NCBI GenBank assembly: GCA_046331325.1
Contig: JAXLRB010000007.1
Span: 82,107 to 146,106 of the forward strand
DNA: 64,000 nt
From: Vicinamibacterales bacterium
GTDB taxonomy: Bacteria > Acidobacteriota > Vicinamibacteria > Vicinamibacterales > UBA2999
Direction: 5' to 3'
Part shown: positions 303-63,500 of the stretch, piece by piece
Numbering within the stretch: the first letter of the stretch is position 1
Layout: every line of letters starts with the position of its first letter
Position numbers and translations under genes: made by a program
Notes under the pieces: generated by a model
What the model was told of the DNA's origin: nothing
What the model saw: only the letters and a program-made list of their open reading frames with translations
Database searches by the model: none

Positions 303-1073
303 TCAGTGCAGCCAGTCGAGGCCGCCGGTCACGCCCAGCGCCTGGCCATTGACGAACGACGCGCCGTCGCTCGCGAGGAAGAGCACCGCCGCCGCCGCTT
401 CCGATACCTGCCCCGGCCGGCCGATGGGGCAGTGCTTCGCGTAGAAGTCGCGGTTCTGCGCCGAGAGTTCCTTCAGCGTCATCTCCGTTTCGAACAGACT
501 GAGCAGCAGCGCGTTGCTCGTGATGCCCTTGCGGCCGTACTCCTTCGCCAGCGCCGACGACAAGCCGAGCAGACCCGCCTTGCTGGCGCTGTAGGCGACG
601 TCGCCCGACATGCCCTGCGCGGCGATCGACGACATGAAGATGAAGCGGCCGAAGCCGTTGGCAAGGAACGCCGGCAGGAACTGCCGGGCCACGTAGAACG
701 CGCCCGACAGGTTGGTGTCGAGCACGTCCTGCCAGTCGTCGTCGCTGGTCGAGAAGGCCAGGCCGGCGCGCGTCACCGCGGCGTTGGCCACCACCACGTG
801 GACGGTGTCGAAGTCGTCGAGCACCTGTTCGCCGATGGTCTCGACGTCGGCGGACTTGCGCACGTCGAGCTGATACGCGCGCACGCGGCTGGACGGCGCG
901 ATCGTCGAAGCTTCGGCGATCACCGCGTCGGCGGCGTCGCGACGTTCGCGATACGTGAACGCCACGTCGAAGCCGGCGGCGGCCGCGGCCGTGACCACGC
1001 CGGCGCCGATGCCGCGCGACCCGCCCGTGAGGAACAGCACCCGGCGCTCGCCGGCGTCGCGATCAGGCGTCAT
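303..1073 (-). CDS. SDR-family 3-oxoacyl-ACP reductase-like ketoreductase
   Basis: 256-aa ORF with the TGGSRGIG Rossmann motif and the S...YSASK catalytic pattern. Its start overlaps the KS stop by 11 nt. Confidence 0.85.
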   Translation of the reverse strand: MTPDRDAGERRVLFLTGGSRGIGAGVVTAAAAAGFDVAFTYRERRDAADAVIAEASTIAPSSRVRAYQLDVRKSADVETIGEQVLDDFDTVHVVVANAAVTRAGLAFSTSDDDWQDVLDTNLSGAFYVARQFLPAFLANGFGRFIFMSSIAAQGMSGDVAYSASKAGLLGLSSALAKEYGRKGITSNALLLSLFETEMTLKELSAQNRDFYAKHCPIGRPGQVSEAAAAVLFLASDGASFVNGQALGVTGGLDWLH

Positions 1074-2343
1074 GGCGCCGCCACAGGCTCACGCAGTTGA
1101 TGCCGCCGAAGCCGAAGGAGTTCTTGAGCATGACGCGTACGTCGCGGTCGCGCGGACCGTCGGCGCAGACGTCGAGATCGACGGCCGGATCGAGCGACTC
1201 GATGTTGATCGAGCGGTGCAGGCGGCCGGCCCGCATCTGCAGCAGGCCGGCGACCGTTTCCACGGTGGGGGCCGACCAGCAGCAGTGCCCCAGCATCGAC
1301 TTCGGCGCGTTGATGGCGATCTTGTAGGCGTGATCGCCGAACACGCGCTTGATCGACTTCAGCTCGGTGAGATCGCCGAGCGGCGTCGACGTGGCGTGGG
1401 CGTTCACGTAGTCCACGTCCGACGGCGCCAGACCGGCATCCTTCAGCACGCGCGTCATCACCCGCGCCTGCCCGTCTTCGGAGGGCTGCGGCAGGTGGTT
1501 GCCGTCGCTGTTGGCGGCGCAGCCGAGCACCTCGGCGTAGATGCGGGCGCCGCGGCGCAGCGCGGCCTCGCGCTCTTCGAGCACCAGCGTGGCGCCGCCG
1601 TGCGCCGGCACGAAGCCCTCGCGACGCGTGTCGTAGGGCCGGCTGGCCAGGGACGGTGCGTCGTTGAAGCTCTCGAACGTGATCGCGCCCATGATCGCCA
1701 TCGCGTGCACGTCGATCGGCGCGAACTCGAGCACCGCACCGACGACCAGGGCGGTGTCGGCGCCGTGGTGGCGGATCTCGTCGATCGCCGTGCGCAGCGC
1801 CACGTTGCCGCTGGCGCAGGCCGCGCCCATGGTGAAGATGGGGCCGCGCGTCTGCAGCACTTCCGAGACGCAGCCGGCGTGATCGGTGTCGAGCGAGTAG
1901 AGCGACGTCATCCCGTCGATGAAGTCCGGCTCGTCTTCGAACTGACGCCGCGTGTCGTACTGGTAGAGCGCGTTCAGGTTGTGGCCCGACACCACGACCG
2001 CCTGCGCGTGCGGGTCGTAGCCGGCGTCGAACAGCCCGGCGTCGAGCCAGCCGTCCACCGCCAGCAGCATCGAGAGCTTCGTGGTCCACGGCACGCGCGC
2101 CACCAGCTTCCTGAGGCGCTTGAAGGTGTCGGCCGGGATGCGGCCGTCGAACGTCGCCAGCTTGGCGTCGACGTCGTAGTGCGACAGGTCGCCGCCCACC
2201 TTGCTGTAGACGCGATCGGTCGGAAACGCCTTCCAGTGCGAGATCGCCGAGCGGCCCGCCATCAGCGCGTCGCGGAATCCGTCGAGCGTGTCGCCGATGG
2301 CGGTGTTGACGCTCATGCCCGTGACGACCACCCGCTTACTCAT
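1063..2343 (-). CDS. beta-ketoacyl-ACP synthase (FabF/KS-like, active-site Cys retained)
   Basis: 426-aa ORF with GAACASG (Cys), HATSTPLGD and GHCCWSA (His) motifs and NSFGFGGIN at the C-terminus. Confidence 0.9.
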   Translation of the reverse strand: MSKRVVVTGMSVNTAIGDTLDGFRDALMAGRSAISHWKAFPTDRVYSKVGGDLSHYDVDAKLATFDGRIPADTFKRLRKLVARVPWTTKLSMLLAVDGWLDAGLFDAGYDPHAQAVVVSGHNLNALYQYDTRRQFEDEPDFIDGMTSLYSLDTDHAGCVSEVLQTRGPIFTMGAACASGNVALRTAIDEIRHHGADTALVVGAVLEFAPIDVHAMAIMGAITFESFNDAPSLASRPYDTRREGFVPAHGGATLVLEEREAALRRGARIYAEVLGCAANSDGNHLPQPSEDGQARVMTRVLKDAGLAPSDVDYVNAHATSTPLGDLTELKSIKRVFGDHAYKIAINAPKSMLGHCCWSAPTVETVAGLLQMRAGRLHRSINIESLDPAVDLDVCADGPRDRDVRVMLKNSFGFGGINCVSLWRRHDA

Positions 2344-2869
2344 CGATGTAGACCTCCGCGACCATGCAGGCCGCCAGCACGTCGCCGTTCCAGGCCTGGC
2401 CGGCGGCGACGAGCGTCATGTCTTCCTCCACCACGTACGCGTGCAGCGTCATGACGTCGCCCGGACGGAACGGCGCCAGGAACGTCGCGTGATGGATGTG
2501 CGTCGCGCGCACCGGCGCCGGTGTCAGTTCCGCCGGCACCTCGGTCGTGCGCCGCCGAGCGAAATGCACGAGCGTGAGCCCGAGCTGGCCGATCGCCTCC
2601 ACGGTGAGCACGCCCGGATACACCGGCGTGTCGGGGAAGTGGCCGGCGAAACCGAGGTCGTCCGCACCGAGCGTGCGGTGCCCGCGCACCGCCGACGCCG
2701 CGACGTCCACGCGGTCGACGCCGTCCACGAGGCGCATTGGCCGGCGATGCGGCAGCAGGCGATCGAGCTCGGCATCGCCATAGGCCACGCGGACGCCGGC
2801 GTCGGCGGCCACGATCGGGCCGCGCTTCAGGCGCCGCACCACGTCCTGCAGGACCTCAGGCGCGAGCAC
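2336..2869 (-). CDS. FabZ/FabA-like 3-hydroxyacyl-ACP dehydratase (hot-dog fold)
   Basis: 177-aa ORF with a GTG start. Contains LPHRRPMRLVD and GHFPDTPVYPGVL..E motifs. It overlaps both neighbouring genes. Confidence 0.8.
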   Translation of the reverse strand: MLAPEVLQDVVRRLKRGPIVAADAGVRVAYGDAELDRLLPHRRPMRLVDGVDRVDVAASAVRGHRTLGADDLGFAGHFPDTPVYPGVLTVEAIGQLGLTLVHFARRRTTEVPAELTPAPVRATHIHHATFLAPFRPGDVMTLHAYVVEEDMTLVAAGQAWNGDVLAACMVAEVYIDE

Positions 2870-3818
2870 TGAGCGCCTCCAGCGTGGATCGCAGATGCAT
2901 CGCGGGATCGCGACCGTCCGGCGCGTCGACGCGGTGGCGCGCCAGGCGTCTCCAGCCGCGACCCACCAGGTTGTGCAGCACGCCGCCTGGACCGACCTCG
3001 ACGAACGTGGCGTCGGCGTGCGTCGTCGCGACGAGGTCGAGCGAGGCGTCCCAACGCACGGGTTCGCTCACGTGTCGCGTCAGCAGATCCACGAACATGG
3101 GCGCGTCGGCATGCACCGGATCGATCGCGCGGCCGGTGACGTTGGGCCGATAGGCCATCGCCGGCCGGCGCCAGCCGGCAGTGGCCAGCGTGCGTCCGAA
3201 CTGCAGTGCCACGCCCACCATGAGCGGCGAGTGCATTGGCACGTGCGGCTCGATCAGGATCGTGTGCGCGCCCGCGTCTTCCAGGGCCCCGGCGACGCGG
3301 GTGACCGCGGCGTCGTGACCGGCGATGACGTGCTGCGTCGGCGCGTTGTAGTTGCTCACCACCACCGTGCCATCGGAGGGGGCGCTGGCGGCGACGGCGG
3401 CCTCGACCGTGTCGCGGTCGGCGCCGAGCACCGTGACCATCACGCCCTGGGGCGCGCGGTCGTAACAATGACCTCGCTCGCTCACCAGGGCGAGCGCGTC
3501 CTCGAACGAGATTGCGCCGATGTGGACCAGGTGCGAGTACTCGCCGAGACTCAGGCCGAGCGACGCGGAGGCCCTGACGCCTTCGGCCTCGAGCGCGCGC
3601 AGATACATCTGCGAGGCGAGGAACACCACGAGCTGCACGTCGCGGTTGCCGGCGAGGCGTGCCGATGGGCCGGCGAGGTATGCGTCGGCCTCGGTGCGTC
3701 CGAGCACGGTCACCGCCGCATCGGCGACGGCGTCGGCGGCCGGATGGGCGCGCCTCGCCCGGGCCAATGCCTGCGGATCGGCCGAGCTCTGGCCGGGGAA
3801 CAGGAACACGTGCGCCAT
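2856..3818 (-). CDS. malonyl-CoA:ACP transacylase-like discrete acyltransferase
   Basis: 320-aa ORF with an FPGQ N-terminus and the GLSLGEYS nucleophile elbow. It is the first gene of the AT-DH-KS-KR-HMGS string. Confidence 0.85.
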   Translation of the reverse strand: MAHVFLFPGQSSADPQALARARRAHPAADAVADAAVTVLGRTEADAYLAGPSARLAGNRDVQLVVFLASQMYLRALEAEGVRASASLGLSLGEYSHLVHIGAISFEDALALVSERGHCYDRAPQGVMVTVLGADRDTVEAAVAASAPSDGTVVVSNYNAPTQHVIAGHDAAVTRVAGALEDAGAHTILIEPHVPMHSPLMVGVALQFGRTLATAGWRRPAMAYRPNVTGRAIDPVHADAPMFVDLLTRHVSEPVRWDASLDLVATTHADATFVEVGPGGVLHNLVGRGWRRLARHRVDAPDGRDPAMHLRSTLEALSARA

Positions 3819-3938: not shown

Positions 3939-4619
3939 ATGCCCGCGCCGTACTCGGCCACCGACCTCGCCGTTCGCCGCACGATCCTTGACACGTTCGT
4001 GCGCGGCGGCGTGCCGACGCGCCTCTCGGTGATGCAGGCGCTTGGTCTCGAGTACGCCGAGGTGACCGCCGCCTACACGCGCCTCGCCGCCGGCCACGTG
4101 ATCGTGCCCGACCCCGACAGCGGCGAGGTGTGGATGGCGATGCCGTTCTCGGCCGTGCCCACCGAGTTCCGGGTGGTGGTGGGCGAGCACTCGGTGTGGG
4201 CCAACTGCGCATGGGACGCCTTCGGCGTGGCGGCGGCGCTCGACGCCGATGTCGCGTTCGTCACGCGCTGCCCGGCGTCGAACGCGCCGGTGCGCGCGGG
4301 TGTGCGCAAGGGTGTGGCCTTCGCGGACGCCGGCGCCGTGGCGCACGTGCCGGTGCCGGCGAGCCGCTGGTGGGACGACATCGGCTACACGTGAAGCACC
4401 ATCCGGCTCTTCCGGTCGGAAGAGGATCTCGCGGGATGGTGTGAACGGCAGGGCCTCGGGCCCGACGGGCGCGTGGACGTGAGCCAGCTGGCCGCGCTGG
4501 CCCGGCGGTGGTACCGCGATCGGCTCTCGGCCGACTGGCAGCCGCGCGGCCGCGAGGCGTCGCAGGCGCTCTTCACCGCGGTCGGCCTCACCGGCGCCCA
4601 CTGGACGCTGCCGGGTTAG
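3939..4619 (+). CDS. MerB-like (alkylmercury/organomercurial lyase family) protein with in-frame TGA 4392-4394; candidate selenocysteine codon
   Basis: The ORF track stops at 4394 (alternative GTG start at 3915). The same frame stays open for 75 further GC3-rich codons to TAG 4617-4619. NCAWDAFG, TRCPASNAPV and the post-TGA STIRLFRSEEDLAGWCERQGLGPDG align by eye with MerB WCALDTLI (Cys96/Asp99), SHCAATGAPV (Cys117) and [24 protein letters not shown]. This places the TGA opposite Cys159. Confidence 0.6.
4401..4427 (+). promoter_or_regulatory. SECIS-like hairpin downstream of TGA 4392-4394
   Basis: ATC[CGG]CTCTTCC-GGTC-GGAAGAG-GAT: a perfect 7-bp upper stem (4407-4413 / 4418-4424) plus a 3-bp lower stem. 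The apical loop GGUC begins 19 nt after the UGA. Confidence 0.5.
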
Positions 4620-4666: not shown

Positions 4667-5170
4667 ATGATCGACTTCGACGGCCTCTATCGCGAACACG
4701 CGCCGCACGTACGGCGTTACGTCCGGCACCTGTCGGGCGATGCGGCGCTGGCCGACGACATCACCGCCGAGACGTTCGTGCGCGTGTGGCAGACGCGCGA
4801 CATGCTGCGCCACGAGACGCTGCGTGCCTTTCTCTTCGCCATCGCCCGGCATCTGTTCCTGAGCGGCGTGCGCGTCAACTGGCGGCGCGCCGCCCTCGAG
4901 GACGTGCATGCCGATCCCGGGCCCGATCCCGAACGTCAGGCGCAGGCCGGCGACGACGCGGCCCGACTCGAGCGGGCCCTCGCGGCCCTGGCCCCGGCCG
5001 ATCGCGAGCCGCTGGTGCTGCGCGCTGTCGAAGGCCTGAGCTACGACGCCATCGGGCAGGTGATGGACCTGTCGGCTGGCGCGGCCAAGGTGCGCGTGCA
5101 CCGCGCCCGCCGGCGTCTGCTGGCGCTGATGACTCCAACCCCCACGCGTTCCACTGGAGACCCCGTATGA
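4667..5170 (+). CDS. ECF-type RNA polymerase sigma-70 family factor
   Basis: Start trimmed to ATG 4667 (MIDFDGLYREHAPHVRRYV...). Region 2 reads DITAETFVRVW and region 4 reads LSYDAIGQVMDLSAGAAKVRVHRARRRL. Its stop overlaps the next gene's start (ATGA). Confidence 0.85.
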   Translation: MIDFDGLYREHAPHVRRYVRHLSGDAALADDITAETFVRVWQTRDMLRHETLRAFLFAIARHLFLSGVRVNWRRAALEDVHADPGPDPERQAQAGDDAARLERALAALAPADREPLVLRAVEGLSYDAIGQVMDLSAGAAKVRVHRARRRLLALMTPTPTRSTGDPV

Positions 5171-5577
5171 ACGTGACCCGCGACGTCGTGATCGACCTGC
5201 TGCCCGTCTACCTCGCCGGCGAGGCGAGCGCTGACACCCGCGCGCTGGTGGAGGCGTTCCTCGCCACCGACCCGCCGCTGGCACGCCTGGCCCGCGAGGG
5301 GTTCGGCGAGGCCGGGCCGTTGCCCGTCGTCGCGGATGCGCCGGCGAGAGCGGCGCTGTCGCGCACGCGCCGCCTGCTGCACCGCCGTCAGCTGGCGTTC
5401 GGTGTCGCCCTGGCACTCACGCTGCTGCCGCTGTCGTTCGGATTCGTCGACGACCGCATCGTCTGGGCGATGTGGCGTGACGCGCCCGCCACGGCGGCGC
5501 TGTGCCTGATCGGCGCGGCGGCATGCTGGACCTGGTTCGCGCGCGTCCGCGCCGCCCTGCGCGCACCGGGCTTCTGA
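5167..5577 (+). CDS. putative membrane anti-sigma factor
   Basis: 136 aa from ATG 5167, translationally coupled to the sigma gene. It has an N-terminal cytoplasmic segment followed by two hydrophobic helices. No specific motif was recognised. Confidence 0.55.
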   Translation: MNVTRDVVIDLLPVYLAGEASADTRALVEAFLATDPPLARLAREGFGEAGPLPVVADAPARAALSRTRRLLHRRQLAFGVALALTLLPLSFGFVDDRIVWAMWRDAPATAALCLIGAAACWTWFARVRAALRAPGF

Positions 5578-59932: not shown

Positions 59933-60478
59933 CTAGCGCTTCGCGACCTTCAGCTCGGCGAGCTTGGCGGCCACGTCGGGTCCGGCCGTCGAGACCTTCA
60001 CCGATTTCTCGATGTACTGAATCTTGCCGTCGATACCGATGTAGAACGTCCAGCGGTTGGCGACACCGAACGTGCCGAGCACGCCGTACTTGTTGGCGAT
60101 GTCTTTGGAGGGATCGGCCAGGATGGGGTAGTCCGCTTCCACGTGCTGGGCGAACTTGGTGTTCTCTTCGATGGTGTCGACGCTGATGGCGTAGTACGCG
60201 ACCTTGTAGGCGCGAATCGCATCGCCGCTCTCACGGAGCGACTTGCATTCGATCGTTCAACCACCGGTGAACGCCTTGGGGAACCAGGCCAGCACCACCG
60301 CGCTCTTGCCCTTGAACTCGGCGAGCGTGTGGGTCTTGCCGTCAGAGCCCTTCAGCGTGAAGTTCGGAGCGTCGTCGCCAACCTTGAGTTCCACGGCCTT
60401 CTCCGCGCGGCCGGTTGCCGCGGCTGCGAGACTGATCACCATCCCGACACCGAATCTGAGCCACTTGCCGATGCGCAT
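59933..60478 (-). CDS. Bcp/PrxQ-type peroxiredoxin with in-frame TGA 60257-60259 at the peroxidatic Cys position; candidate selenoprotein
   Basis: Track ORFs 60257-60550 and 59933-60142 lie in one frame, joined by 38 open codons. The joined sequence reads ..VVLAWFPKAFTGG[TGA]TIECKSLRESGDAIRAYKVAYYAISVDTIEENTKFAQHVEADYPILADPS... This matches the Bcp pattern FYPKAMTPGCTVQAC. Start at ATG 60478 (MRIGKWLRFGVGMVISLAAAA), after GGAGG-N4. Confidence 0.7.
60224..60242 (-). promoter_or_regulatory. SECIS-like hairpin downstream of TGA 60257-60259
   Basis: The mRNA reads GUCGCUC-CGUGA-GAGCGGC, a 7-bp stem that includes one G-U pair. The apical loop begins 21 nt after the UGA and has GU at loop positions 2-3. 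Confidence 0.45.
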
Positions 60479-60555: not shown

Positions 60556-60561
60556 GGGAAC

Positions 60562-63500
60562 GTGAGGGTGAGGGTGCCAGGCTGGCTCGCCTGGACGGCC
60601 GCCGGGATCGTGGCGGCCGTGGGCGCGCTGGCGCTGCTCGTGCAGTCGCCGCCGGCGACGCGCTGGGGCCGCGACTGGCTGATTCGGCAGGTCGCGACCC
60701 AGTGGCAGCTCGATCTCGCCACCTCGCGTCTCGAACTCGACCCCGTCTCCCGCCGCGTCACCGTCTACGACGTGCGTCTCGCCGCGCCGGGCCACGACGA
60801 CGTCCCCTTCTTCTCGGCCGCGCGCGTCTCGGCCTTGCTGCCCTGGTCGGTGTTCCGCGGCCGCGTGCGCGTCGACCTGCTGGAGGTCGACGGCGGACGC
60901 GTGCACCTCGTGCGCGAGAGCGGCGTGATGGTGAACCTGCCGCCGTCGTCGGGCAAACCGCCGCCCGAGGTGCCGCGCCGTCTCGACCTGCGCAACGTGC
61001 GCGTCAGCTGGCTCGACGTGATCTACCAGGATCGTACCGGCGACAGCGACGTGGCCGTGCGCGGCCTGCGCCTGATGCTCGACGAGCGGCAGCAGCGCGG
61101 CGTGGTCGACGCCGCCGGCACCATCGCCGCCGACTGGCTGCACGTGCGGCTCGGCGCCAAAGCGACGACCAGCGGCGCGTGGCGCGGCGGCGCGTCGTTC
61201 GACGGATCGCATCTCGCGCTCGACGGGCTCTCCATCCCGCTGCCCGAAGCGAACGTCGTCGTCGACGGCGCCATCCGCCGCGTGCTCGACGACACGCACT
61301 TCGAGCTCGGGCTGAAGGGCACGCTCGACTACGCGACGCTCTCGGCGTGGACGCCGCCGCCGGTGCCGGTGTCGGGTCCCGGCACGTTCACCGGCACCTT
61401 CACGGGTCCGTTCAACGCGTACATCCTCAAGGCCGACTTCGCGTCTCCGGGCCTCACGATCGCGCGCGCCGACGGCCTGCCTCTCACCGGGCATCTCGAG
61501 CTGACCTCGCCGCGCACCGTGATCCAGCCGTTCCGCGTCACGATGCCGGCCACCGCCGCATCGCCGCGTGAGGGCGTGGTTGAAGGCCGCTTCACCTACG
61601 AGTTCGGCGCCAGCTCGAGCGACATGGCGGCGACGTTCCGTGATGTCGATCTCGATCGCGCGCTGGCCGCCTACAACGAGGACCCGACGACGTTCGCCGC
61701 GTGGGAAGACGGCACGGTCACGATTCGCCGCGTCTCGCCCGCCGACACGATGGAACTGCACGCGCGCGGTACCAGCCGCGCGCTGACGCGCACCGATCGG
61801 ATCGCCCTCGACGGCACCTGGAAGGCGGACCTCGCGCGCGAGCAGTGGCACGTGGACCACGATCACCGCCTGCTCGACACCGTGCGCGCCAGCGGGTCGA
61901 TGGCGTGGCCGTCGGCCGACACGCCGGCGCGGTCGCCGCTGAGCGGTCCACTCGCCGTCGAGATCGGCAACGTGGGCCCCATGGTGCGCGCGGCGCGCCG
62001 CTCGGGCATCGATCTCTCGCCGTGGTTGATGGACGTCACCGGCCCCGCGTCGGGCACGCTGGCCATGGACGGCACCATGGCGCGAATGGTGATCCGCGGA
62101 CGGATCGCGTCGCAGCCGCTGCGGCTGCCCACCGGCGCCGCGGCCACCGCCGCCGCGGACATCGTCTACGACCTCGACACGCTGCAGGCCACCGCCTTCG
62201 AACTCACGACGCCCGGCGCGTCGATGACGGGCGACGTCACGATGGGCATGGAGTCGAGCCGCCTGAAGGGCAGCTTCCGCGCCTCGGCCACCGACCTGCC
62301 ACAGCTCGCCGCGCCCTTCGCCTCGCTGCCGACGCTGAGCGGCGTGGTGAACGTGCAGGGCACGATCGGCGGCACCACCGACACGCCCGACGTGCCGTTC
62401 ACGATCCAGTCGACGCCGATCGCCTACGAGGGGCAACGCGTCGGCACGGTGGATGTGCAGGCGCATCTCCTCGGTACCACGGTGGAGTTCGCGCGACTGT
62501 CGGTCGAGCAGGATCCCGGCACGTTCTCCGGCACGGGGCGTGTGGACTACGAGACCGGCGCCTACGACGTCACCCTCGCGGGGCGCGATCTGCAATGGAT
62601 GAACCCGCAGCAGGGGGCGCCGGTGGAGGCGGTGACGGCGCGACTCGACTTCGCCGGCGCCGGCACCTTCGAGACGCCGGGCGGCCGCGGCACGATGACG
62701 CTGACGCCGATCGGCGGTTCGATCGGCGACCTGGTCGGCGCGACCGACGTGCGCGCCGAGTTCGCGGCCGGCCTGCTGAACGCCACGGCGTTCCTGCCGA
62801 AGCTGCGCACGCTGGTGCAGGCCACGGTGTCGCCCCGCGCGCCCTACGCGTACCAGGGCACCGCGGCCGTGAGCGCGCTCGACGTGCAGCCGTTCCTGCT
62901 GGCCGTCGGCACGCTGCCAGAAGCCGTGTCCGGCACCGTGGGCGCCAGTGTCTCGTTCGACGGCCAGGCCAACGATCCCGATTCGGCGCGTGCGCTCGTC
63001 AACCTGCAGTCGGCCGAGCTCTCGGTGGGCGGCATGCCGGTGCGTCTCGAGCGCCCCGCGCGCGCGACCGTGCGGATGGACGACTTCACCGTCGACGATC
63101 TCGCGCTGCGCGCCGGGTCGACCACGCTCGTGGCGTCGGGGCGCTATCGCGACGGCGCCTCCACGCCGCTCAACGCCTCGCTGAACGGCCGCCTCGGCGA
63201 CGTGGTGGCGCTGGGCCGCGCGTTCGGCGCGGTGCCGCCGGGTGTCGCGGCCGACGGCGCCATCGACGGCACGTGGCAGAGCCGCGGTGGTTTCGAGAAC
63301 GCGCGTGCCACGCTACGTCTCGCCGACGCGACGGTGACGCCCGATGGCCTGCCATCGCTCACCGCGCTCACCACCACGGCGACCTTCGACGGCGCGGTGG
63401 TGACGGTGGATGCGCTGCGCGGCGAATGGCAGGGCGCGGTGCTCGAAGGCACGGCACGCGTGCCGCGTCCGGTGCTCACCGCCACGGCGGCGGCGCCGGC

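Follow-up and report, generated by a model that had tools for sequence, protein, structure and literature searches.

In the organomercurial lyase MerB, two chalcogen ligands hold the metal of the substrate, while Asp99 protonates the leaving carbon. One selenoprotein relative of this enzyme has been described, namely SaoL (NCBIfam NF040728), a MerB-like protein with a C-U motif, whose selenocysteine (Sec) is aligned to MerB Cys159 (Haft and Gwadz 2022, bioRxiv 10.1101/2022.07.06.499078). SaoL occurs in strict anaerobes (Firmicutes, spirochaetes and Deltaproteobacteria), as part of a nine-gene Selenocysteine-Assisted Organometallic (SAO) locus that includes SaoA/P/B and SaoE, and its authors knew of no selenoprotein in the mercury resistance families (10.1101/2022.07.06.499078). 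Two reviews of prokaryotic selenoproteins, dated 2022 and 2026, list SaoL as the sole MerB-like entry. The gene analysed here is interrupted by an in-frame TGA and is located on the plus strand, at positions 3939-4619, of a 64-kb stretch of DNA from a Vicinamibacterales bacterium (the whole stretch of 64,000 nucleotides is referred to as the window). Judged by its sequence, the gene is a member of the MerB (alkylmercury lyase, PF03243) superfamily. It is very probably a genuine Sec-encoding gene of this superfamily, for which incorporation of selenium is predicted.

The open reading frame (ORF) that ends at TGA 4392-4394 encodes 159 amino acids from GTG 3915, in agreement with an earlier note on this DNA, and 151 amino acids from ATG 3939. 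The start at ATG 3939 agrees with the N-termini of the homologues (MPAPYS.../MPAPLS...). As the earlier note had also described, the same frame stays open past the TGA up to TAG 4617-4619, and 74 codons were counted between the two triplets. The GC content of third codon positions (GC3) amounts to 0.94 before the TGA and to 0.88 after it, so that the extension was rightly called GC3-rich. The positions of the individual elements of the gene are collected in Table 1.

The relationship to MerB extends across the TGA codon. The product ending at the TGA matches the Pfam MerB model PF03243 with 63.9 bits, at profile positions 1-80 of 126; the read-through product reaches 97.6 bits (gathering score 27) and covers positions 1-125 of 126 with its residues 70-192. 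The extension thus provides the missing end of the domain, and the comparison with PF03243 that had been proposed for the read-through product returned a nearly full-length domain. Alignment of the family profile to the R831b MerB (PDB 1s6l) places NCAWD on WCALD (Cys96/Asp99) and TRCPASNAP on SHCAATGAP (Cys117), which agrees with the pairing of NCAWDAFG with WCALDTLI and of TRCPASNAPV with SHCAATGAPV given earlier. In the alignment to MerB2 (PDB 5c17) the TGA falls on the catalytic cysteine ('gyt[U]stirlfrsee' versus 'ggtCkqihyfssve'). The former claim that UGA replaces a catalytic Cys is therefore borne out by both the PF03243 and the MerB2 alignments, which put the TGA on the Cys159 column.

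Structure prediction was carried out on P0117, a natural Cys homologue that is 45% identical to the window protein. The AlphaFold model has a predicted local distance difference test score (pLDDT) of 91.3 and a predicted template modelling score (pTM) of 0.84. A Foldseek search with this model gave MerB2 (5c17) as the top match (E 2.9e-11, TM 0.70/0.75), and the only strong structural neighbours are MerB2 (5c17) and MerB (3f2f, 3f0o and others). The N-terminal ~64 residues weakly resemble a DtxR-type helix-turn-helix domain, and the C-terminal extension is modelled with high confidence as helices. Based on this model of the Cys homologue, the predicted fold is that of MerB. According to the alignments and to the predicted fold of the Cys homologue, the equivalents of the MerB catalytic triad Cys96, Asp99 and Cys159 are Cys90, Asp93 and the predicted Sec152.

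Table 1. Positions of the gene and its elements in the window
Feature	Position	Strand	Remarks
Complete predicted selenoprotein gene	3939..4619	+	226 codons, ATG 3939 to TAG 4617-4619; UGA-encoded residue 152
Part annotated as the whole gene	3939..4391	+	N-terminal helical, winged-helix-like domain and first two-thirds of the MerB core
In-frame TGA, predicted selenocysteine 152	4392..4394	+	Column of MerB Cys159
C-terminal 74 codons outside the annotation	4395..4616	+	End of the MerB core and family-specific extension ...RRWYRDRLSADWQPR...GLTGAHWTLPG
TGC, Cys90 = MerB Cys96 (metal ligand)	4206..4208	+	Profile alignment to 1s6l; nearly invariant in the family
GAC, Asp93 = MerB Asp99 (proton donor in MerB)	4215..4217	+	Alignment; C and D at both columns in 75/75 Sec-form cluster representatives
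TGC, Cys111 = MerB Cys117	4269..4271	+	Profile alignment to 1s6l; column invariant in family alignments
Core hairpin resembling a bacterial selenocysteine insertion sequence	4407..4424	+	7-bp stem CUCUUCC/GGAAGAG, loop GGUC 4414-4417; encodes Leu-Phe-Arg-Ser-Glu-Glu
Extended stem-loop in the window sequence	4396..4442	+	Lower stem GCACCAUCC/GGAUGGUGU around the core hairpin; -25.2 kcal/mol

A scan of one genome per GTDB species yielded 51 related loci (L001-L051) from six phyla. Their hosts belong to the Acidobacteriota/Vicinamibacterales, the Gemmatimonadaceae, many Actinomycetota (Gaiellaceae, Solirubrobacterales, Acidimicrobiales and Ilumatobacteraceae), the Dehalococcoidia and the Dormibacteria, together with one member of the Desulfobacteraceae. 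At the Sec column, TGA is present in 48 loci as well as in the window, TAG in one (L021) and TGT in one (L026); L015 and L023, the latter with TGA at this column, are frameshifted elsewhere in the gene. The residue preceding the column is Thr in 50 of 51 sequences. In all loci compared, the downstream frame is open for 71-84 codons and contains the conserved motifs TIRLFRSEE or MNLFRSEEH, W[YW]xDRLxPxWxPR and GLTGxFWxLP. Differences from the window sequence 3' of the hairpin are most numerous at third codon positions (642, compared with 478 at first and 432 at second positions), and in the closest relatives third-position differences prevail by about 2:1 over those at positions 1 or 2. The third-position excess, together with the open frame and its conserved motifs, indicates that the extension is translated. 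A natural end of the orthologues at this codon, which the earlier note had named as contrary to its proposal, was not observed: 48 of 51 loci keep the TGA, and what follows it in frame shows conservation at the protein level.

Some of these loci carry unusual codons at the active-site columns. In an uncultured Actinomycetota metagenome-assembled genome (MAG), MFD02840.bin.2.49, the Sec column holds TAG (L021:3445-3447); the CUCUUCC-GGUC-GGAAGAG hairpin behind it is intact, and the downstream frame is open and conserved. This TAG either encodes selenocysteine or arose very recently by nonsense mutation; cases in which UAG is naturally recoded, with variant anticodons in tRNA-Sec, are reported in PMC8124441 (citing Mukai 2016). 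The locus from the Desulfobacteraceae MAG (L024, 49% GC) has two in-frame TGA codons, one at the Cys96-equivalent (3238-3240, WWAN[U]AWD) and one at the Cys159-equivalent (3424-3426), and a possible small hairpin, GCUGG-GGAUA-CCGGC, is located downstream of the first. From its sequence, the product may be a MerB-like protein with two selenocysteines. In an Ilumatobacter sp. MAG, an extra in-frame TAG is found at the Cys117-equivalent column (L048:2580-2582, QAP*LDDGSP) in addition to the TGA at the Sec column, which could mean that the gene is a pseudogene, that the assembly is faulty here or that this codon is recoded too.

The same codon delimits most of the database entries of the family. 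A search in a collection of 5.8 billion protein sequences was performed and the 120 closest proteins were examined. As many as 114 of them end exactly before the Sec column, typically after 149-151 amino acids, under names such as 'hypothetical protein', 'Alkylmercury lyase' or 'organomercurial lyase [Vicinamibacterales bacterium]'; the expectation that standard annotation would shorten the gene thus proved correct. Three of the 120 run past the column, with Cys in P0117, Gly in P0078 (a true GGA codon) and Ser in P0118. Furthermore, an exhaustive HMMER search with the Cys form as query against 1.84 billion cluster representatives (50% identity) gave 1680 relatives at E <= 0.001 and 685 at E <= 1e-10. 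Among the best 150 representatives, 75 end one residue before the Sec column and all of these possess the Cys96 and Asp99 equivalents, whereas about 57 are full-length with Cys at the column, of which 23 show the combination Cys/Asp/Cys and 29 the combination Cys/Cys/Cys. Both UGA and Cys forms, whose search had been recommended, are therefore present (TGA in 48 loci; TGT in L026 and P0117), and their occurrence at one column is, as far as sequences can tell, the classical pattern of a Sec/Cys family.

Two further groups of homologues were recorded at these columns. In the Cys/Cys/Cys subgroup (P0127, P0128, P0131, P0135 and others) the Asp99 equivalent is replaced by Cys, giving a C-x-x-C motif plus the C-terminal Cys, and this composition points to another chemistry or to the binding of metal alone. 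At the Sec column, Trp is found in P0121 and P0124.

Directly behind the TGA a candidate selenocysteine insertion sequence (SECIS) has been identified. The perfect hairpin CTCTTCC-GGTC-GGAAGAG was found at exactly the position given in the earlier note. The published model of bacterial SECIS elements (bSECIS) assumes (i) a loop of 3-9 nt on a stem of 4-16 bp; (ii) a G in the first two loop positions; (iii) a distance of 16-37 nt from the UGA; (iv) a minimum free energy of <= -7.5 kcal/mol (PMC13188914). The fit to bSECIS, which had been proposed as a check, holds in all four respects: the hairpin has a 4-nt loop on a 7-bp stem, a loop starting with GG, a spacing of 19 nt between UGA and loop, and a folding energy of -9.1 kcal/mol for the minimal hairpin alone. 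A region of 65 nt folds at -30.1 kcal/mol, with z = -3.5 relative to shuffled sequences, which is an unusually high stability. The SECIS of Escherichia coli fdhF is likewise a stem-loop within the coding region directly 3' of the UGA, and its GGUC apical loop, placed by the earlier note about 18 nt after the UGA, is indeed found in the fdhF sequence as GGTC at 18 nt, compared with 19 nt in the window gene. The two elements differ in that the window hairpin has another stem sequence and is perfectly paired, whereas the fdhF stem carries a bulged U.

The hairpin was then considered in an alignment of 51 sequences, taken from the stop codon onward. In the 7-bp upper helix 96.4% of the cells are paired, and changes on both sides occur in five of the seven pairs; when the partner is shifted by 1-3 columns, pairing falls to 40-54%. 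In L016 the closing C-G pair has become A-U by two synonymous changes (CGG to AGG and UCG to UCU), and the group of L046, L047 and L051, which has FLRSKD in place of LFRSEE, still keeps a hairpin, UCCUUC-GGUC-GAAGGA. The codons of the hairpin are nearly fixed (Leu CTC in 41/41, Arg CGG in 50/51 and Ser TCG in 48/50), while a short way upstream the columns of Pro, Ala, Ser and Arg, which are no less conserved, vary among 4-5 codons each. Glu is encoded by GAA in 37/48 cases, although codons ending in G or C are preferred elsewhere in these genomes. L026, a Cys form (TGT), encodes the same peptide region by CTC TTT CGA TCT GAG and has lost the hairpin. The lower stem shows no common register across the clades (58.8% paired), though many relatives have one.

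Several results weigh against a selenocysteine gene. Under loose bSECIS rules, 14% of the 1264 TGA trinucleotides of the window, whose GC content is 71%, precede a hairpin of >=7 bp. The stem consists of complementary Leu/Phe and Glu codons, by which RNA conservation is entangled with protein conservation, and the non-Sec forms L052 (TGT) and L053 (GGA) keep most of it. No Rfam match was obtained for the whole window at gathering thresholds or for positions 4300-4520 at E up to 10; this null result is treated as uninformative, because bacterial SECIS elements are diverse. ARAGORN detected no tRNA-Sec in the 64-kb window, nor in the 51 loci, and a crude motif scan for SelA, SelB and SelD in the six-frame translation of the window gave no match. 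Taken from one sequence, such a hairpin is only weak evidence; the case rests on the comparison across genomes, and it is the conservation in about 50 species that lifts the observation above chance.

The two non-Sec forms that retain the stem deserve a separate description. L052 (216-884), a forest-soil contig encoding P0117, combines TGT with UUCUUC-AGGUCA-GAAGAA, and L053 (68-775), which encodes P0078, combines GGA (Gly) with CUCUUCC-GGUC-GGAGGAA. Both may be recent conversions from Sec. For the TGT of L052, Sec decoding of a Cys codon is also possible, a precedent being cited in PMC8124441.

The tRNA search made a single call in the window, an 87-nt 'tRNA-Val (gac)' at 60716-60802 (minus strand), with the anticodon at position 38. 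This call is most likely a false positive and not a tRNA-Sec, because it is located inside a long high-GC plus-strand ORF starting near 60560.

A second gene of the same type is encoded in the window. The UGA-at-catalytic-Cys gene announced earlier for 59933-60478 (minus strand) is real: it encodes a BCP-type peroxiredoxin, and its TGA 60257-60259 falls on the column of the peroxidatic Cys (FPKAFTGG[U]TIEC versus YPKDDTPG[S]TRE of PDB 3drn). A 7-bp hairpin, GUCGCUC-CGUGA-GAGCGGC, follows with its loop 21 nt after the UGA, and the GC content of the gene is 62%, compared with 71% for the window. On these sequence features it is probably a second selenoprotein gene, and as such it lends indirect support to the presence of a Sec machinery in this genome. 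A window-wide GC3 screen for genes with an in-frame TGA, a procedure too unspecific in high-GC DNA, gave only 4392 and 60259 as loci that look like real proteins.

Among the explanations other than selenocysteine, the best surviving one, which is nonetheless very improbable, is that near-cognate or suppressor tRNAs insert Trp, Cys or Gly at the UGA and that the hairpin just stimulates read-through. A few homologues do have W or G at the column (P0121, P0124 and P0078, the last with a codon that is truly GGA). However, the hairpin conforms to the bSECIS model of the SelB type and has a GGUC loop like that of fdhF, the homologues without UGA carry Cys at the column, a pattern specific to Sec/Cys pairs, and a second Sec-type gene is present in the window. 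In addition, TGA is the commonest ordinary stop among the long ORFs of the window and ends 12 of 20 of them. For the latter reason, an alternative genetic code with reassigned TGA has been excluded.

An orthologue of SaoL working in the SAO system would likewise have its Sec in the place of MerB Cys159, and among the NCBIfam models it is SaoL that matches the window protein best. The score, however, is 36.5 bits (47.4 for P0117), whereas the cut-off is 140 bits; the 17 members of the family that were tested all stay below the SaoL and MerB NCBIfam cut-offs. Moreover, the motif is T-U and not C-U, and no SAO genes (ABC transporter, efflux pump or other) were found in the flanks, which covered 10 kb at the window and 3 kb at the 51 loci. 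Most of the hosts are Acidobacteriota, Gemmatimonadaceae, Actinomycetota and Dehalococcoidia from soil and other environments, unlike the strictly anaerobic SAO taxa. Orthology with SaoL is accordingly regarded as very improbable, marginally more so than non-Sec read-through.

A split MerB, in which the UGA is a true stop followed by a separate small protein or by a regulatory or terminator hairpin, is still harder to defend. Bacterial genes are sometimes split, and in principle a hairpin might halt ribosomes or make the mRNA more stable, but in every case the downstream ORF continues the frame right from the stop, without a conserved start codon. Each Cys homologue is one uninterrupted protein, the junction lies within a single Pfam domain and a single predicted fold, and the catalytic residue would be absent from either half. 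Finally, a pseudogene or sequencing error, in which a Cys codon mutated or was miscalled to leave a dead fragment of 151 amino acids, has almost no probability, although TGA is one base from TGC or TGT and the 151-aa form equals the database annotation. The base-call error considered earlier cannot account for a codon that recurs in about 50 assemblies made independently of each other; of the 51 species-level loci, which come from six phyla, 48 have TGA. The downstream frame is open and shows an excess of third-position change, and a conserved hairpin with compensatory changes follows the TGA.

In the proposed process the UGA of codon 152 (4392-4394) would not be read as a stop. Judged by its anatomy, the hairpin 4407-4424 with its GGUC loop would act as a bacterial SECIS and recruit SelB with Sec-tRNA(Sec); selenocysteine would be inserted and translation would continue for 74 codons. 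By analogy with MerB, the Cys90 thiolate and the Sec152 selenolate would bind the metal of an organometallic substrate, and Asp93 would protonate the carbon. The hydrocarbon would then be released, and the metal ion would stay on the S/Se pair until it is taken over by a thiol or a partner protein. The protein may thus be a carbon-metal bond lyase with a selenolate as the second ligand. That the substrate is an organomercurial such as methylmercury is a little short of an even chance by this analogy. Such a substrate amounts to an extrapolation, because no mer genes (merR, merT, merP, merA) were found in the flanks of the window or the 51 loci and the scores are far under the MerB equivalog cut-offs (30.5 versus 193 bits for NF009710 and 27.5 versus 200 bits for NF033555).

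The gene neighbourhood has been inspected as well. The flanking genes encode an aldo-keto reductase, UvrD, a LOG-family protein, a two-component system, cytochrome c-like proteins and a GAF/PNPOx protein. Across the 51 loci, synteny is limited to the Acidobacteriota clade; no neighbourhood is common across the phyla and no functional partner emerges, and guilt by association therefore offers no clue to the substrate. Directly downstream in the window, and in the window only, a sigma-70 factor of the extracytoplasmic function (ECF) type (Sigma70_r2, r4_2) is encoded at 4667-5170 (plus strand). A small ORF without a Pfam match comes next and may encode an anti-sigma factor (the pair spans 4667-5577, plus strand). 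The sigma factor and the small ORF look like a local insertion, because the pair is missing at that position in all 51 related loci.

Upstream and divergent (303-3818, minus strand), four overlapping ORFs resemble genes of fatty-acid or polyketide synthesis, as read by eye from their translations. These are an SDR/FabG-like ORF (303-1073), a ketoacyl synthase (1063-2343), a hotdog dehydratase-like ORF (2336-2869) and a malonyl-CoA:ACP transacylase-like ORF with GLSLGEYS (2856-3818). Among the 51 loci this arrangement is partly shared by L044 only.

The correct reading of the TGA codon matters for existing annotations. If the Sec assignment is true, well over 100 database entries, which go by the names 'organomercurial lyase', 'Alkylmercury lyase' or 'hypothetical protein', are cut at the catalytic residue, and surveys of merB diversity as well as of the soil selenoproteome miss or misjudge these shortened entries. 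Natural Sec/Cys pairs within one MerB-like family would offer a test of the role of selenium in carbon-metal protonolysis and metal release; with its size, its ecology and its natural Sec, Cys, UAG and double-Sec variants, the clade is a useful system. Should the substrate be methylmercury, soils would possess a selenium-dependent demethylation capacity that is invisible to surveys based on the mer operon. The widest interpretation is tentative and rather unlikely as a whole: the clade would be a selenoenzyme family of its own, not yet catalogued and distinct from SaoL, whose members cleave bonds of carbon to metals or metalloids without a mer operon and account for an unrecognised, selenium-dependent breakdown of methylmercury or other organometals in soils. 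This family would be common among bacteria of soil and other environments (Vicinamibacterales, Gemmatimonadaceae, Gaiellales, Solirubrobacterales, Acidimicrobiia and Dehalococcoidia). As part of this interpretation, the variants with UAG at the Sec column (L021) and with Sec at both metal-ligand positions (L024) would illustrate the flexibility of Sec recoding.

Compared with MerB (R831b; PDB 1s6l, 3f0p) and MerB2 of Bacillus megaterium (5c17), the window protein shares the fold predicted for its Cys homologue, the metal-binding Cys, the Asp, the column of the second chalcogen ligand and the Cys117 column, at an identity of about 20%. In contrast to these enzymes, MerB Cys159 is replaced by the predicted Sec, there is no vicinal Cys160, and the gene has no mer operon neighbours. 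With SaoL the present clade has in common the PF03243 domain, the Sec at the position of MerB Cys159 and the retained equivalents of Cys96 and Asp99. The differences relate to the motif mentioned above, to the gene context, which is the SAO locus for SaoL and a stand-alone gene for the present clade, and to the family-specific C-terminal extension of the present clade, ending ...GLTGxFWxLP. NCBIfam release 20 contains no model for the present clade, and no published description of it was found in a literature coverage that is incomplete. The kind of protein, a Sec-containing MerB homologue, has been known since SaoL; judging from the sequences, the present clade is apparently a second, distinct and uncatalogued Sec clade. 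It also appears to be larger than SaoL, as half of the best 150 cluster representatives at 50% identity are Sec forms.

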